Source: Escherichia coli (GTDB lineage Bacteria > Pseudomonadota > Gammaproteobacteria > Enterobacterales > Enterobacteriaceae). Taken from it: a stretch of 64,000 nt of DNA. The position numbers were made by a program, and so were the translations under genes. The stretch lies in NCBI RefSeq assembly GCF_041248615.1, contig NZ_CP158426.1; one strand, written 5' to 3'. Numbering within the stretch: position 1 is the first letter of the stretch; every line of letters begins with the position of its first letter. The notes beneath the pieces were generated by a model that did not search any database, was not told where the DNA came from, and saw nothing but the letters and a program-made list of their open reading frames with translations. Positions 7,989-59,047 of this stretch are shown in pieces.

Positions 7989-8717
7989 ATGGAAGGCTGG
8001 CAGCGCGCATTTGTCCTGCATAGTCGCCCGTGGAGCGAAACCAGCCTGATGCTGGACGTCTTCACGGAGGAATCGGGTCGCGTGCGTCTGGTTGCCAAAG
8101 GCGCACGCTCTAAACGCTCTACTCTGAAAGGTGCATTACAGCCTTTCACCCCTCTCTTGCTACGTTTCGGCGGGCGTGGCGAAGTCAAAACGCTGCGCAG
8201 TGCTGAAGCCGTCTCGCTGGCGCTGCCATTAAGCGGTATCACGCTTTACAGCGGTCTGTACATCAACGAACTTCTCTCCCGCGTACTGGAATACGAGACG
8301 CGCTTCTCTGAACTCTTTTTCGATTACTTGCACTGCATTCAGTCTCTTGCAGGTGCCACTGGTACGCCAGAACCCGCGCTGCGCCGCTTTGAACTGGCAC
8401 TGCTCGGGCATCTGGGCTATGGCGTCAATTTTACCCATTGTGCGGGTAGCGGCGAGCCGGTAGATGACACCATGACGTATCGTTATCGCGAAGAAAAAGG
8501 GTTTATCGCAAGCGTCGTTATCGACAATAAAACGTTCACCGGAAGGCAGTTAAAAGCGTTAAACGCGCGGGAATTTCCTGACGCAGACACACTGCGCGCC
8601 GCGAAACGCTTTACCCGCATGGCGCTTAAGCCGTATCTTGGCGGTAAACCATTAAAGAGCAGGGAACTGTTCCGGCAGTTTATGCCTAAGCGAACGGTGA
8701 AAACACATTATGAATGA
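7989..8717 (+). CDS. recO: DNA repair protein RecO
   Basis: 242 aa; position and sequence match the rnc-era-recO operon. Confidence 0.95.
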
Positions 8718-8728
8718 TGAGGATTGTC

Positions 8729-9460
8729 ATGGCTGAATTACTGTTAGGCGTCAACATTGACCATATTGCAACGCTGCGTAACGCACGCGGTACTGCTTAC
8801 CCGGATCCGGTGCAGGCGGCGTTTATTGCTGAGCAGGCGGGAGCGGACGGCATTACCGTGCATTTACGTGAAGATCGCCGCCACATTACTGACCGTGATG
8901 TGCGCATCCTGCGTCAGACGCTGGATACCCGCATGAATCTGGAGATGGCGGTGACCGAAGAGATGCTGGCGATCGCCGTTGAGACGAAGCCACATTTTTG
9001 CTGTCTGGTACCGGAAAAGCGTCAGGAAGTAACAACCGAAGGCGGCCTGGACGTCGCAGGGCAGCGTGACAAAATGCGCGATGCCTGTAAACGTCTGGCG
9101 GAGGCCGGGATCCAGGTTTCTCTGTTTATCGACGCCGATGAAGGGCAGATCAAAGCTGCGGCAGAGGTTGGCGCACCGTTTATCGAGATCCACACCGGTT
9201 GCTATGCTGATGCCAAAACTGACGCCGAACAGGCGCAAGAGCTGGCGCGTATCGCCAAAGCCGCGACCTTTGCCGCTAGTCTCGGTCTGAAAGTTAACGC
9301 TGGTCACGGTCTGACCTATCACAACGTGAAAGCTATTGCCGCCATCCCTGAGATGCATGAACTGAATATCGGTCATGCCATTATTGGTCGTGCAGTGATG
9401 ACCGGACTGAAAGATGCGGTGGCAGAAATGAAGCGTTTGATGCTGGAAGCGCGTGGCTAA
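8729..9460 (+). CDS. pdxJ: pyridoxine 5'-phosphate synthase
   Basis: [21 protein letters not shown]..., 243 aa from ATG 8729; track ORF starts 5 codons earlier. Confidence 0.95.
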
Positions 9461-9840
9461 TGGCAATATTAGGTTTAGGTACGGATATTGTGGAGATCGC
9501 TCGCATTGAAGCGGTGATCACCCGATCCGGTGAGCGCCTGGCACGCCGCGTATTAAGCGATAACGAATGGGAAATTTGGAAAACGCACCACCAGCCGGTG
9601 CGTTTTCTGGCGAAACGCTTTGCCGTAAAAGAAGCCGCAGCAAAAGCGTTTGGCACCGGGATCCGCAATGGTCTGGCGTTTAATCAGTTTGAAGTATTTA
9701 ACGATGAGCTTGGTAAGCCACGGCTGCGACTGTGGGGCGAGGCATTAAAACTGGCGGAAAAGCTCGGCGTTGTAAATATGCATGTAACGCTGGCAGATGA
9801 ACGCCACTATGCTTGCGCCACGGTAATTATTGAAAGTTAA
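9460..9840 (+). CDS. acpS: holo-[acyl-carrier-protein] synthase
   Basis: 126 aa, [17 protein letters not shown]...; start overlaps the pdxJ stop. Confidence 0.95.
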
Positions 9841-9862
9841 AAAAATACCGTTCTCTTTATAA

Positions 9863-9906
9863 AGTAAAACCCCCGAACTGGTAAGGAACGGGGGTTTTAC
9901 TTTTTA
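9863..9906. terminator. bidirectional rho-independent terminator (acpS on +, ohsC on -)
   Basis: aaagtaaaaccccc / gggggttttacttttt stem-loop with U-runs on both strands. Confidence 0.6.
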
Positions 9907-9940
9907 ACTTTAATTTTGTGCAGCACGCACCCTCAACAAG
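9863..9940 (-). ncRNA. ohsC: OhsC-like antitoxin sRNA of the ShoB/OhsC type I TA pair (approximate bounds)
   Basis: Minus-strand promoter-like TTGTAA / CATAAT near 9950-9980; 21-nt segment 9918-9938 directly repeated at 10167-10187 in the shoB 5'UTR, so the divergent RNAs pair with two G-U wobbles; ends at the bidirectional terminator. Confidence 0.45.
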
Positions 9941-10259
9941 AGCGATTATGGATCAGGGCGGTTATCTTTTACAAGCAACTTGCAATCTTTAGCATAAAAA
10001 CTCGAGCCTTTACGAAGAAAACAATATTGATGGAAAGATTAACGTGACCGCCAATTCGGAAGTACATTAAAATTGGCTTCGTTATTGGCGATTTTGCTGT
10101 GCTTTATACCATGCCACAGAATTCCCCCATTGAAACGAGTGGTGTCGTCAAAGCTCTGGTGTGGAGTGCAGCATGCACCCTCAATAACTCGCACGTTCAG
10201 TTTTGGGGAGATGTAAGGGCTAATCTGAACGGCTGCATTCCTTGTTTAAGGAAAAACGA

Positions 10260-10340
10260 ATGACTGATTGCCGATACCTGATTAAACGGGTCATCAAAAT
10301 CATCATTGCTGTTTTACAGCTGATCCTTCTGTTCTTATAA
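10260..10340 (+). CDS. shoB: type I toxin ShoB (26-aa hydrophobic peptide)
   Basis: atg act gat tgc cga tac ... taa translates to MTDCRYLIKRVIKIIIAVLQLILLFL; below the size cutoff of the ORF track; followed by a hairpin terminator. Confidence 0.85.
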   Translation: MTDCRYLIKRVIKIIIAVLQLILLFL

Positions 10341-10357
10341 CATAAGGAAACGTACTT

Positions 10358-10397
10358 AAGGCGCGTCAGGTTAACCAGCCAGGCGCGCCTTTAATAA
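10358..10397 (+). terminator. terminator downstream of shoB
   Basis: GC-rich inverted repeat aaggcgcg ... cgcgcctt followed by ttaataatta. Confidence 0.45.
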
Positions 10398-10534
10398 TTA
10401 TAAATAAGTGCTTATACAGATAGTGTTATCATTCATGAAATAATTGATATTTATGATAACATCACGAAAATAAATATAAGAACCTGAAGGCTCACACTAT
10501 AAAGTCAACAATAGTCTACTCCAGGAGCAGAATA

Positions 10535-10831
<297 letters not shown>

Positions 10832-10850
10832 TTATACGCGCATTCTTTAC

Positions 10851-11699
10851 TCAGACCAGTTTTTTCACCAGCGCTTCACTGTGACGAATACGTTCTGGAG
10901 CCAGTTCCAGATCCTGCTGAATCAGCGCAATGAACAGCAAATCCGTTAACATTCCCTGCGCGTGACAAGCAGAGATTGAAGCACTGTTTGTCGCTTGTTC
11001 TTCGGCAATGGTATACAGGCAATGAGAAGCACGCTGTTGCAGGGCATTCGGAGTAAAGCCGGTAATCGCCAGCACTTTTCCGCCCACTCGCAGCATCTCA
11101 TCTGCCGCCAGGTTTAACTCGCGTCGTACACCGGTGTAAGAAATGGCTAATAACAGATCGTCAGGGGACGACGCCTGTACGGTAGCGAGTAGCACATGCA
11201 TATCGCGCACTGCGGCAGCATTGAAGCCAATCTTCATCAGCTTCCAGGCAAAGTTTTGCGCCACCAGACCCGAAGCGCCAATACCGGTCAGAATTATCCG
11301 CCGCGCAGAGCGCAACATTGTTACGCATTCATGCAGTTTCTCTTCACTATTAACGTTTAGCGTTGCGTACATAGCGGCAGTATTTTCTTTAATCAGTTTT
11401 TCGCCGACCAGCCGTAACGGATCATCACCGCGGATTTGGTTATGAATGGGCACGGAGGGCGATTCCGGCTGGCTTGCCAGCGCTTCACTCAACGCCAACT
11501 TAAGCGCCGGAAAACCTTTATAGCCGAGTTTTTGCGCGAACTTCACGACGCTGGACTGACTGACTCCGGCTTCGTTGGCCAGTTGCTGAGAGCTTAAATG
11601 GCGCGCCGTATCAGGTTGTAGCAGAAGATAATCCGCCAGTTTTTTATCACTCTGGGCAAGCCCCTGGTAACGCTGACGGATACGAAGTAAGCCGTTCAT
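10851..11699 (-). CDS. yfhH: RpiR/SIS-family transcriptional regulator
   Basis: 282 aa from MNGLLRIRQRY...; N-terminal HTH and C-terminal sugar-isomerase (SIS) domain; track ORF is extended by 24 codons. Confidence 0.85.
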   Translation of the reverse strand: MNGLLRIRQRYQGLAQSDKKLADYLLLQPDTARHLSSQQLANEAGVSQSSVVKFAQKLGYKGFPALKLALSEALASQPESPSVPIHNQIRGDDPLRLVGEKLIKENTAAMYATLNVNSEEKLHECVTMLRSARRIILTGIGASGLVAQNFAWKLMKIGFNAAAVRDMHVLLATVQASSPDDLLLAISYTGVRRELNLAADEMLRVGGKVLAITGFTPNALQQRASHCLYTIAEEQATNSASISACHAQGMLTDLLFIALIQQDLELAPERIRHSEALVKKLV

Positions 11700-11907
11700 A
11701 TCTTTCCTCGCGATGAAATAGTGGCGACAACAGGCAATATGAGACAAACGCGAGTGAATTTTATATTCCATTGCCGCTAATTTCCATGAATTAAAAATTC
11801 CAGTTAGCCATGATGCGGTCGATTGTTGCCGGAAAAGTGATGATCTATCTGTTAGGCTATGTAGTAGCGAAAATTAATCAGGATGTTTCAGTCCAGAGGA
11901 GTATGGT

Positions 11908-12543
11908 TTGGCAACTCACGAGCGTCGTGTGGTGTTTTTTGACTTAGATGGAACATTGCATCAGCAGGATATGTTCGGCAGTTTTTTGCGTTATTTACTG
12001 CGTCGCCAACCGCTGAATGCGTTGCTTGTCCTGCCGTTGTTGCCGATCATTGCCATTGCGTTATTGATAAAAGGTCGTGCGGCACGCTGGCCGATGAGTC
12101 TGCTTCTGTGGGGGTGCACTTTTGGTCACAATGAAGCACGTTTACAGACGTTGCAGGCCGATTTCGTACGCTGGTTTCGTGACAATGTTACCGCCTTTCC
12201 GCTGGTTCAGGAGCGATTAACCACCTACCTGTTAAGTTCCGATGCTGATATCTGGTTGATTACCGGCTCTCCGCAGCCGCTGGTTGAAGCGGTTTATTTC
12301 GATACGCCCTGGCTGCCGCGGATTAATCTTATCGCCAGTCAGATTCAGCGTGGCTATGGTGGTTGGGTATTGACGATGCGTTGTCTGGGACATGAAAAGG
12401 TCGCGCAACTGGAGCGTAAAATCGGCACGCCACTGCGGTTGTACAGTGGCTATAGCGACAGTAATCAGGACAACCCGCTGCTTTATTTCTGTCAGCATCG
12501 TTGGCGAGTAACCCCGCGCGGTGAACTCCAGCAACTGGAATAG
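11908..12543 (+). CDS. pgpC: phosphatidylglycerophosphatase C (HAD family)
   Basis: (M)ATHERRVVFFDLDGTLHQQD..., 211 aa; TTG start at 11908 with GAGGAG Shine-Dalgarno upstream. Confidence 0.85.
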   Translation: MATHERRVVFFDLDGTLHQQDMFGSFLRYLLRRQPLNALLVLPLLPIIAIALLIKGRAARWPMSLLLWGCTFGHNEARLQTLQADFVRWFRDNVTAFPLVQERLTTYLLSSDADIWLITGSPQPLVEAVYFDTPWLPRINLIASQIQRGYGGWVLTMRCLGHEKVAQLERKIGTPLRLYSGYSDSNQDNPLLYFCQHRWRVTPRGELQQLE

Positions 12544-37106: not shown

Positions 37107-37210
37107 GGTGCGGACACTGCCAGTCTGACCTGTTAAAGGCTGCAGGGCTGGCCAGAAGCACGCTGTACTACCAGCTGTCACTGCAGAAGGCTAAGGACAA
37201 GTATGCTGAT

Positions 37211-37965
<755 letters not shown>

Positions 37966-55040: not shown

Positions 55041-55284
55041 TTTCCGCGTCATGCTTCACGCCGCAGATGCGTTGGCTGCGCTCGTTCACCCCAGTCACAT
55101 AGTTATCTATGCTCCTGGGGCTTCACTCACTTGCCGCGTGATTCGGCCTTTTGGCCTCACCCCTTTGGGGCCAGCGCAAGCGCTGTTCAAAACGCAATGC
55201 GTTTTGTCCTGCAACGCGAATCATTTAGCGGAAAAATCCTGGGGCTGCCAACTGGCGGCCCTTTTACAAAGAAGGATAACTAAA

Positions 55285-56686: not shown

Positions 56687-57463
56687 ATGTCCGAAACAAA
56701 AAACGAACTTGAAGATCTGCTGGAAAAAGCAGCAACCGAACCGGCGCACCGCCCGGCCTTTTTCCGTACTCTACTGGAATCCACCGTCTGGGTGCCGGGT
56801 ACGGCGGCGCAGGGCGAGGCTGTGGTTGAAGATAGCGCGCTTGATTTACAGCACTGGGAAAAAGAAGACGGCACCAGCGTCATTCCTTTTTTTACCTCGT
56901 TAGAAGCACTTCAACAGGCGGTTGAAGACGAACAGGCATTTGTCGTAATGCCCGTTCGCACATTGTTTGAGATGACCCTTGGCGAAACGCTCTTCCTTAA
57001 TGCCAAACTGCCAACCGGTAAAGAATTTATGCCGCGTGAAATCAGTTTGTTGATTGGTGAAGAAGGAAATCCGCTGAGCAGCCAGGAAGTACTGGAGGGC
57101 GGTGAATCGCTGATATTATCGGAAGTCGCAGAGCCGCCAGCACAAATGATTGATTCACTCACCACCTTATTTAAAACTATTAAGCCGGTGAAGCGTGCTT
57201 TTATTTGTTCAATTAAAGAGAACGAAGAGGCACAGCCTAATTTACTTATTGGCATTGAAGCCGATGGTGATATCGAAGAAATTATTCAGGCGGCGGGAAG
57301 TGTAGCGACCGATACATTACCTGGCGATGAACCCATCGATATTTGTCAGGTGAAAAAAGGGGAAAAAGGAATTAGCCACTTTATTACCGAACATATTGTG
57401 CCATTCTATGAACGTCGCTGGGGTGGTTTTTTGCGTGACTTTAAACAGAACCGGATAATCTAA
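56687..57463 (+). CDS. sseB: SseB-family protein (enhanced serine sensitivity protein)
   Basis: MSETKNELEDLLEKAATEPAHRPAFFRTLL..., 258 aa; position between pepB and sseA. Confidence 0.88.
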   Translation: MSETKNELEDLLEKAATEPAHRPAFFRTLLESTVWVPGTAAQGEAVVEDSALDLQHWEKEDGTSVIPFFTSLEALQQAVEDEQAFVVMPVRTLFEMTLGETLFLNAKLPTGKEFMPREISLLIGEEGNPLSSQEVLEGGESLILSEVAEPPAQMIDSLTTLFKTIKPVKRAFICSIKENEEAQPNLLIGIEADGDIEEIIQAAGSVATDTLPGDEPIDICQVKKGEKGISHFITEHIVPFYERRWGGFLRDFKQNRII

Positions 57464-57808
57464 AATATGCCGCCCCAAAGGGCGGCATTCGGGCTTACCT
57501 GCTGTTCTGAAGGTTGTTAACCACCAGTAAATTGTTGCCGGAGAGACTCCGGTTATTATTTACCTCGGTTAACAGCGCACCAGAAACAATAAGTACGATA
57601 CAAAAGCACCGTATCTTCATTGTGCGGTCCATGCGAAGACCGCATCACGACAGCACCACTGGCGATATTGCCGCGATAGCAAGCGCTGTGAAACACCTGC
57701 ATTTACGGCCATGGAACATCCTTTCCTTAAGCCAGCGCCCGTTTGCGAGACGGCGGAAAGGGCCGGTGTCGATAATACGCTAAATAAACAATGATTACTC
57801 TCTTTCGC

Positions 57809-58957
57809 TGTGTAAGTTCACAGAGATATTGCAATTACCTCCGGATAAGTAAGGGGAGATTGCACTATGCAAATGCAGCATCTGATGGTTGGCTATCCTA
57901 AGTACTACCAAACGGCCGATTATGCGTTGAGGCTTTCAGTGATGGCTGATACAGCAACAATGAGAATGAAGGCTCTGCACTTCTGGGATAAACACGGTAT
58001 TTCTGCAGCTTCTGAAGCCTTTGGCGTGTCCTGCCGCACGCTTTACTGGTGGCGTCAGTTACTGAACAAGGGAGGACCTGAGGGGCTAATCCCGCACAGT
58101 AAGGCACCTCTGGTGCGACGAAAAAAGCACTGGCATCCCGATGTGCTGAAAGAGATTCGACGGCTGCGGACAGAGCTGCCGAACCTCGGTAAAGAGCAGA
58201 TTTTTGTTCGCCTGAAGCCCTGGTGCGAACAGCGCTATCTGGCCTGTCCAAGTGTTTCCACCATCGGCAGAATGATCGCTGCCGCACACGATAAAATGCG
58301 AATGATACCTGTGCGTCTGGGCTCGCGGGGGAAGGCACTGCTTGTCAAAAAGCGGTCTGCCAAACCCCGCAGACCAAAGCACTACCGCCCGGTAAAGACA
58401 GGTGAGCTCATTGGGATGGACGCCATTGAGCTCAGAATGGGCGAACTGCGTCGCTATGTCATCACCATGATCGACGAATGCAGCAATTACGCGCTGGCGC
58501 TGGCTGTACCGTCGCTCAACAGTGATATCGTCAATCACTTCTTCAGCCGTGCAGCCCGGCTGTTCCCGGTCGGTATCAGTCAGATAATCACAGATAACGG
58601 AAAAGAGTTCCTGGGAAACTTCAACAAAACGCTGCAGGAAGCCGCTATCAAACACCTCTGGACCTATCCCTACACGCCAAAAATGAACGCTATCTGTGAA
58701 CGTTTTAACCGGACGTTAAGAGAGCAGTTTATTGAATTTAATGAGATTTTACTCTTTGAAGATCTGGCGCTATTTAATCAGAAGCTGGGGGAATATCTGG
58801 TACTGTATAACAGCAAAAGGCCCCATAAGGCGCTCGCACTAATGACGCCCGTGGAATATATTTTAAGAGAGAACAAAAATTGCAATATGTGGTGGACCCA
58901 TACATTCGCTTGACAAAAAGAGAGTTACTGGCGAGTATTGCTTTGCTGTGAAGCACC
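57809..58957 (+). mobile_element. IS481-family insertion sequence (boundaries approximate)
   Basis: Single DDE-transposase ORF flanked by gapped imperfect inverted repeats sharing TTCACAG and GCAAT blocks (left about 57811-57842, right about 58929-58955); outer ends and target duplication are not resolved. Confidence 0.45.
57867..58913 (+). CDS. IS481-family DDE transposase (HTH plus integrase-core/rve domain)
   Basis: 348-aa ORF; N-terminal HTH (FGVSCRTLYWWRQ); catalytic residues in GMDAIEL, ITDNGKEF and ICERFNRTL; C-terminal YNSKRPHKAL motif typical of IS481/IS3 rve domains. True start may be an internal Met. Confidence 0.8.
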   Translation: MQMQHLMVGYPKYYQTADYALRLSVMADTATMRMKALHFWDKHGISAASEAFGVSCRTLYWWRQLLNKGGPEGLIPHSKAPLVRRKKHWHPDVLKEIRRLRTELPNLGKEQIFVRLKPWCEQRYLACPSVSTIGRMIAAAHDKMRMIPVRLGSRGKALLVKKRSAKPRRPKHYRPVKTGELIGMDAIELRMGELRRYVITMIDECSNYALALAVPSLNSDIVNHFFSRAARLFPVGISQIITDNGKEFLGNFNKTLQEAAIKHLWTYPYTPKMNAICERFNRTLREQFIEFNEILLFEDLALFNQKLGEYLVLYNSKRPHKALALMTPVEYILRENKNCNMWWTHTFA

Positions 58958-59016
58958 TGCGTTGCTCCGACAACACAAGTCAACCTGCTGGAAAGGCCGC
59001 GAACCAGACCAGCAAT

Positions 59017-59047
59017 AAAAAACCGCCAAATTCGGCGGTTTTTTATT
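59017..59047. terminator. bidirectional rho-independent terminator at the 3' end of sseA
   Basis: aaaaaaccgccaaattcggcggttttttatt: perfect stem with U-runs on both strands. Confidence 0.7.

Follow-up and report, generated by a model that had tools for sequence, protein, structure and literature searches.

The acpS-yfhL spacer of the window, by which we mean the whole 64,000-nt stretch of Escherichia coli DNA analyzed here, holds the chromosomal shoB/ohsC type I toxin-antitoxin locus at its usual place (positions 9841-10534). We are very nearly certain of this identification, and nothing argues against it. The locus is an already known, textbook case: the pair has been characterized since 2005-2008, has its own Rfam family, and is annotated in EcoCyc and RefSeq. 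RyfC/OhsC goes back to Kawano 2005 and ShoB/OhsC to Fozo 2008. A modest, incremental addition comes from comparing the locus across complete genomes: the segments through which the toxin mRNA and its antisense RNA pair covary between two alleles, and one strain naturally carries a mismatched pair.

The 694-nt spacer lies within an E. coli chromosomal gene order that runs rpoE-rseABC-lepAB-rnc-era-recO-pdxJ-acpS on one side and yfhL-yfhH-pgpC-tadA-mltF-purL on the other. The order pdxJ-acpS-ohsC-shoB-yfhL-yfhH is common to the window, strain C4, and K-12. The spacer is 100% identical to that of several complete genomes, E. coli strain C4 among them, and has a match in 5425 of 5426 complete E. 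coli genomes, on the chromosome every time and never on a plasmid. The K-12 counterpart (ShoB/OhsC, ryfC; b4687/b4608; RF02495) has the same locus, flanking genes, promoters, ribosome-binding site, terminators, and ShoB peptide. Its shoB gene is nucleotide-identical to that of the window, and its OhsC has the same length and structure. The differences from K-12 are two single bases in OhsC, at 9860 in the 3' tail and at 9926, and a diverged stretch of the ohsC promoter spacer (9957-9961). The segment from the shoB terminator to the yfhL stop codon (10398-10530) behaves differently: it differs from K-12 some 50 times over roughly 130 nt, whereas the spacer outside it is only a few percent away, and it thus forms a local hypervariable segment.

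The toxin gene is an ORF of 26 codons plus stop on the plus strand at 10260-10340, which translates into the hydrophobic membrane toxin MTDCRYLIKRVIKIIIAVLQLILLFL. An earlier, sequence-only reading of this DNA had recognized the ORF as ShoB, and rightly so: DNA and protein match K-12 shoB (b4687) base for base, and genomes identical to the window carry the RefSeq label 'type I toxin-antitoxin system toxin ShoB' at this site. The same reading had remarked that the ORF track missed the gene. This fits a length below the default 60-aa ORF cutoff, and even a listing of ORFs of at least 20 aa shows only a TTG-started ORF of 32 codons (10242-10340). NCBIfam has no model for the 26-aa peptide. According to Fozo et al. 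2008, as relayed in PMC5668327 and PMC8309996, overproduction of ShoB kills the cell and depolarizes its membrane, and expression of OhsC abolishes this toxicity. The peptide encoded in the window is identical to the one used in these published tests.

A promoter consensus scan places the shoB promoter at 10044-10073 on the plus strand, with a -35 hexamer GTGACC, an 18-nt spacer, and a -10 hexamer TAAAAT. These are the shoB hexamers of Table 2 in PMC11264685, where promoter hexamers are tabulated for more than 2000 E. coli genomes, and they are kept in all 15 haplotypes that we aligned. With the start taken from the -10 hexamer and the end from the terminator, the shoB mRNA would span 10080-10397 on the plus strand and have a 5'UTR of ~180 nt. 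Its predicted length of ~318 nt agrees with the published full-length transcript of ~320 nt. The terminator hairpin (10353-10396, plus strand) is an inverted repeat with 18-nt arms, its stem is present in both folds of the mRNA, and it is followed by UUUAAUAAUU. The Shine-Dalgarno (SD) sequence AAGGAA (10248-10253) is paired with UUCCUU (10238-10243) in the full-length fold, giving a predicted plus-strand hairpin at 10238-10253. AAGGAA is invariant in all our haplotypes and in the other Escherichia species examined, and PMC11264685 likewise gives it as 100% conserved. PMC5668327 cites Fozo et al. 2008 for two transcripts of shoB: one of full length, ~320 nt, and one of ~280 nt that has been processed at the 5' end. 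Only the processed ~280-nt mRNA is translated, by the account of the same study given in PMC5668327 and PMC8309996. CpxR has been reported to control both shoB and ohsC through two boxes (CB1/CB2) in the intergenic region.

The antitoxin is a small RNA of 77-79 nt encoded on the minus strand at 9859-9937. An Rfam scan of 8500-12000, as the sequence-only reading had suggested, matches the ohsC_RNA family (RF02495) at 9861-9937 on the minus strand over its full length (model positions 1-77 of 77), with 106.6 bits against a gathering score of 50 and an E-value of 9.7e-18. This is the single strong match in the scanned segment, the rest being sub-threshold and lying on the terminator hairpin, and it recurs in a scan of the whole window. 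K-12 ohsC (b4608, 79 nt), annotated between shoB and acpS, maps to 9859-9937 on the minus strand with differences at 9860 and 9926, so the reference OhsC lies in the part of the spacer where it had been placed and not elsewhere. The predicted length of 77-79 nt agrees with the published ~78 nt. The earlier reading thus had the right strand, while its ends, 9865-9940, require correction to 9859/9861-9937. The gene is divergent from shoB and does not overlap it; from the OhsC 5' end at 9937 to the inferred shoB start at ~10080 there are about 140 bp.

The ohsC promoter was found by the same consensus scan at 9945-9974 on the minus strand, with a -35 hexamer TTGTAA (9974-9969), an 18-nt spacer, and a -10 hexamer CATAAT (9950-9945) that ends 7 nt ahead of the OhsC 5' end. 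These too are the hexamers of Table 2 in PMC11264685. Downstream, a hairpin at 9857-9907 has the sequence of an intrinsic terminator shared by acpS on the plus strand and ohsC on the minus strand. It is built from an inverted repeat (9857-9875/9889-9907) with 19-nt arms that are 95% complementary, begins 17 nt past the acpS stop codon, and has T-runs on both strands. That OhsC ends at a bidirectional acpS terminator had been proposed from the letters alone, and the proposal was fair: the flanks are T-rich on both sides, and in the Rfam ohsC model this hairpin supplies the 3' stem of 15 bp. It makes up the 3' two-thirds of OhsC, whose predicted fold has an energy of -28.8 kcal/mol (z -4.2). A terminator consensus scan flagged neither this hairpin nor that of shoB, because their loops exceed its 8-nt limit; both were located by inverted repeats and folds instead.

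Other Rfam matches in the window are mostly the expected E. coli elements: AsrC, rncO, GlmY, and iscRS. A match to AaHKsRNA22, an Aggregatibacter small RNA, at 55142-55214 on the minus strand (47.2 bits against a threshold of 39.8) may be a terminator-like structure near pepB/sseB. The window also contains a second small-toxin locus. It consists of ryfA at 57462-57766 on the minus strand (RF00126, 320 bits), the 41-aa timP ORF inside it (57495-57620, minus strand), and the putative antitoxin RNA timR at 58945-59044 on the plus strand, ~1.2 kb from ryfA/timP. The segment that separates ryfA/timP from timR, 57810-58980, begins ~44 nt upstream of where ryfA starts and measures 1171 nt in the window against 333 nt in strain C4. 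It includes a 348-aa ORF for an IS481-family transposase (57867-58913), whose 219 bits fall slightly short of the NCBIfam cutoff (224). A further mobile element of the IS3 family, ~1.43 kb long (36534-37965; orfA 36576-37106, orfB 37211-37933), lies between yphB and yphA and is absent from strain C4.

The link between the two genes is a direct repeat, 9918-9939 and 10166-10187, with 20 of 22 positions identical at a spacing of 248 nt. The two mismatches are C/T differences, at 9926/10174 and at 9937/10185. This is more than chance would give: when the 694-nt spacer was shuffled 300 times with its dinucleotides preserved, the top direct match of 22-mers stayed at 14-18 and did not once reach 20. 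The sequence-only reading had described a 21-nt repeat with two C/T differences, which holds; its second copy, 10167-10187, was one base out of register, and the correct 21-mer partner of 9918-9938 is 10166-10186. OhsC is encoded on the other strand, which turns both C/T differences into G-U wobbles, as had been foreseen along with pairing to the toxin 5'UTR. The first 20 nt of OhsC, 5'-GUUGAGGGUGCGUGCUGCAC-3' (9918-9937, minus strand), pair with 5'-GUGCAGCAUGCACCCUCAAU-3' in the shoB 5'UTR (10166-10185, plus strand), a site that precedes the SD sequence by 63 nt and the AUG by 75 nt. The computed duplex has 18 Watson-Crick and 2 G-U pairs and an energy of -40.5 kcal/mol. In K-12, position 9926 is T rather than C, and an A-U pair at OhsC position 12 stands where the window has G-U, giving 19 Watson-Crick pairs, 1 G-U pair, and -40.9 kcal/mol. 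All final duplex energies were computed for the 5' 24 nt of OhsC against the 20-nt site. A duplex of the whole 77-nt OhsC with 10000-10400 (RNAduplex, -58.1 kcal/mol, z -4.9) was rejected as unphysiological because the OhsC terminator is unfolded in it. For K-12, the literature describes 19 nt at the OhsC 5' end as complementary to the shoB 5'UTR, and according to PMC11264685 the pairing requirements of shoB-ohsC have not been experimentally defined.

One could read the minus-strand element as nothing but the acpS terminator next to a chance repeat, with no independent antisense RNA and with a spurious small ORF. The 3' two-thirds of 'OhsC' are indeed a plain terminator hairpin, which also scores weakly on the plus strand and weakly matches unrelated Rfam families that contain terminators, and the 26-aa peptide has no HMM in NCBIfam. 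Yet the Rfam match runs the full length of the model and includes the non-terminator 5' part of OhsC, a promoter is correctly spaced from the start of OhsC, and the direct repeat is better than all 300 shuffles. Moreover, lineages that differ in the 5' segment of OhsC differ in its target as well, and the shoB ORF keeps its length and nearly all of its sequence across two haplogroups that are ~10% apart in DNA, as well as in other Escherichia species. Toxicity and rescue experiments have been published besides. We give a chance origin of these elements a negligible probability and return to the locus as a genuine toxin-antitoxin pair.

How OhsC would silence shoB can be approached through the predicted fold of the mRNA. 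The full-length fold (-104.8 kcal/mol, z -4.2) holds the flanks of the OhsC site in 5'-terminal helices, 10081-10088/10181-10188 and 10095-10111/10157-10173, so that 10174-10180 form an internal loop. The K-12, B-type, and recombinant alleles discussed below are predicted to fold in the same way; such folds come from thermodynamic models, and the sequences vary too little to offer much of a check on them. When 20-40 nt are taken off the 5' end, the predicted cost of opening the 20-nt site drops from 13.7 to ~6.5 kcal/mol. Such a halving would explain why the processed form alone is active and why it needs control by OhsC.

The SD sequence, which the predicted fold locks in a local hairpin, is 63 nt away from the target. 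OhsC therefore most likely acts as IstR-1 and OrzO do, by occupying a standby region. In the mechanism that we propose, shoB would be transcribed from the GTGACC/TAAAAT promoter into a ~320-nt mRNA encoding a hydrophobic inner-membrane peptide, which depolarizes the cell when overproduced. Transcription of ohsC would run in the divergent direction and end in the hairpin shared with acpS, and OhsC would act in trans through its first 20 nt on 10166-10185. The primary shoB transcript would be inert, and 5' processing would expose a single-stranded ribosome standby region. On the processed mRNA, OhsC would occupy this region and compete with ribosomes rather than mask the SD sequence directly, and the duplex would probably create an RNase III substrate or trigger cleavage. 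Standby competition and RNase III cleavage are both borrowed for shoB from tisB/istR-1 and zorO/orzO, and they are to be taken as analogies; PMC5668327 notes that the regulatory elements of shoB have not been studied in detail.

Two other modes of action have to be weighed. Direct occlusion of the shoB ribosome-binding site, in the classical cis-antisense manner, would be the commonest textbook mechanism for a type I antitoxin. The distance of the target makes it unlikely, however: the sole extended complementarity, 10166-10185, ends 63 nt short of AAGGAA (10248-10253), and ohsC has no overlap with shoB, so that we regard occlusion as highly improbable. A more serious alternative, if still a doubtful one, is that OhsC works mainly through mRNA decay, with RNase III or RNase E cutting the duplex, and not through standby competition. 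At 20 bp, perfect or nearly so, the duplex has the length that RNase III requires, zorO mRNA is cut by RNase III in response to OrzO, and the OhsC target is far from the SD sequence. Against this, both effects co-occur in related systems, and the B-type duplex, split by a U-U mismatch into 10 + 9 bp, would be a poorer RNase III substrate and is nevertheless found in ~31% of genomes. The present data fit either reading equally; occupation of the standby region is the one that we prefer.

The kindred systems from which this mechanism is drawn resemble shoB/ohsC in architecture. In the E. coli TisB/IstR-1 pair, a divergently transcribed small RNA likewise uses its 5' end to pair with ~20 nt within a long toxin 5'UTR; the site is far from a downstream ribosome-binding site that is sequestered, as is predicted for shoB. 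There too, only the 5'-processed mRNA is active, and the toxin is a small depolarizing membrane peptide. The sequences are unrelated, tisB is under LexA/SOS control whereas shoB/ohsC is reported to respond to CpxR, and the standby mechanism is experimentally established for tisB but inferred for shoB. ZorO/OrzO and DinQ/AgrB share with shoB/ohsC the divergent architecture, a pairing of 18-21 nt at the 5' end, a 5'UTR of ~170-180 nt, and activation by processing, although their peptides and RNAs are unrelated to ShoB and OhsC. The zor/orz genes are tandem paralogous pairs with discriminating specificity in one genome, whereas shoB/ohsC presents two specificities as alternative alleles of a single locus.

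These alleles emerged from a spread sample of E. coli genome matches, which falls into two identity classes, ~97% and ~90.5% to the window. An alignment of 15 haplotypes divides accordingly into two groups, A and B. The A-type, to which the window and K-12 belong, has the OhsC 5' end GUUGAGGGUGC[A/G]UGCUGCAC and the target GUGCAGCAUGCACCCUCAAU. The B-type, found in O157:H7, NRG 857C, and others, has the OhsC 5' end GUUGGAAUCGUGUGCUGCAC and the target GUGCAGCACUCGAUUCCAAU. The target core reads GCACCCU in the A-type and CUCGAUU in the B-type, and OhsC has changed to match: six to seven core positions are altered in both partners in all seven B-type haplotypes sampled. With the core swapped on both sides, cognate pairing is kept. 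The B-type cognate duplex has 19 pairs around one U-U mismatch (-33.7 kcal/mol), compared with 20 pairs in the A-type. Duplexes across types are weak, -18.7 to -22.3 kcal/mol, and A and B partners are thus predicted to cross-pair poorly. At OhsC position 12 the window, an A-type, has a G-U pair, a state intermediate between the A-U of K-12 and the G-C of the B-type. In its genes, position, promoters, SD hairpin, and ShoB peptide (identical or with single conservative substitutions) the B-type is like the window; it differs in the -35 hexamer of ohsC, TTGTAC and not TTGTAA. The 5' end of the B-type shoB mRNA reads GGCAAUU, where the window has GGCGAUU (10087-10093) and K-12 GAAGAUU. In the predicted fold, GGCAAUU pairs with GAUU, a B-specific part of the target core, and so lengthens the 5'-terminal helix; it could be a third covarying site, or a coincidence.

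To count the alleles, we used two-piece 112-nt blastn queries read by identity bands, together with a chimeric query. Query coverage had been tried as a separator of haplotypes and was rejected, as blastn aligned across types at ~85%. The A/A query finds 3728 genomes at 95% identity or more and 1696 at 80-90%, and the B/B query finds 1695 at 95% or more. The split is therefore ~69% A-type and ~31% B-type, with B2 strains and O157 among the latter, and it equals the split between TTGTAA (66.8%) and TTGTAC (33.1%) ohsC -35 hexamers given in PMC11264685. No recombinant of A-type ohsC with a B-type target, which would fall in the 90-95% band of the A/A query, was found among complete E. coli genomes. 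The near absence of recombinants is itself weak evidence, because the pairing sites are only 248 bp apart; the concerted swap of several bases is the informative part. A 2024 survey noted variation in the pairing core and left untested whether pairing is retained. Our literature search, which stopped short of the 2008 and 2012 primary papers, met no earlier description of the covariation. From these data we propose, with confidence that is evenly balanced, that shoB/ohsC exists as two long-lived and mutually orthogonal specificity alleles, with A ancestral, whose partners have co-evolved so that good pairing is limited to an OhsC and the shoB mRNA of the same allele.

The history of the two types can be followed outside E. 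coli. We scanned one genome per species with an exact degenerate pattern made of the SD hairpin and codons one to five of shoB. The locus turned up in five Escherichia lineages, E. whittamii among them. The four loci in which both partners are readable all have the A-type core and keep the pairing, their changes being wobble-compatible throughout; in E. whittamii the contig ends before ohsC is reached, and its A-type target alone is visible. In E. albertii, E. fergusonii, and other genera the scan of one genome per species gave no match, which the strictness of the pattern may explain. The presence of the A-type core in other Escherichia lineages makes the A-type look ancestral and the B-type derived within E. 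coli. By the same reasoning, the C at 9926 in the window, which gives the G-U pair, is common to several other Escherichia lineages, so that the A-U pair of K-12 at OhsC position 12 is probably the derived state.

A single exception to the matching of partners was found with the chimeric query for B-type ohsC and an A-type target, which retrieves one genome at 98.2%, that of E. coli Z1323CEC0015 (NZ_CP148423.1). It is the sole such recombinant of ~5424 genomes and joins a B-type ohsC, promoter and pairing core included, to an A-type shoB with its promoter and target. Alignment confirms the recombination, with a breakpoint near window positions 9985-9990; positions 401-706 of its locus correspond to 9900-10205 of the window. 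The predicted duplex reaches only about -21 kcal/mol, and the shoB ORF is intact. Since this strain lives with a mismatched pair and an intact toxin gene, pairing by OhsC is not a strict requirement for viability.

Disrupted loci occur as well. Strain SZQ1 (NZ_CP173996.1) has an IS3 element between the shoB 5'UTR and the ORF, and its match to the window ends at ~10261. In strain EC96 (NZ_CP060748.1), which has an IS1 element, the sequence from ~9952 on, shoB included, is missing, and an ohsC-only locus is left. Rare interrupted and antitoxin-only strains are also recorded in PMC11264685. Two further strains, E. coli FCI29 and FCI17, carry a B-type target with one (G) or three (GCA) additional nucleotides after GUGCAGCA, at window position 10173/10174. 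These insertions look like slippage in a GCA repeat and would bulge the OhsC duplex; as both genomes come from one sequencing project, an assembly error is possible.

The locus serves as a positive control for reading DNA by its letters: what was recovered here from raw sequence is a 26-codon toxin gene and a trans-acting antisense RNA, elements of the kind that ORF tracks and gene callers routinely miss. For a pair that has so far been without proof by mutagenesis, the concerted change of both partners over ~5400 genomes provides comparative evidence that the OhsC-shoB duplex forms in vivo. The recombinant, the IS-disrupted, and the ohsC-only strains are natural genotypes in which the dispensability of the antitoxin can be tested, and Z1323CEC0015 in particular already supplies a test of the importance of OhsC pairing in vivo.
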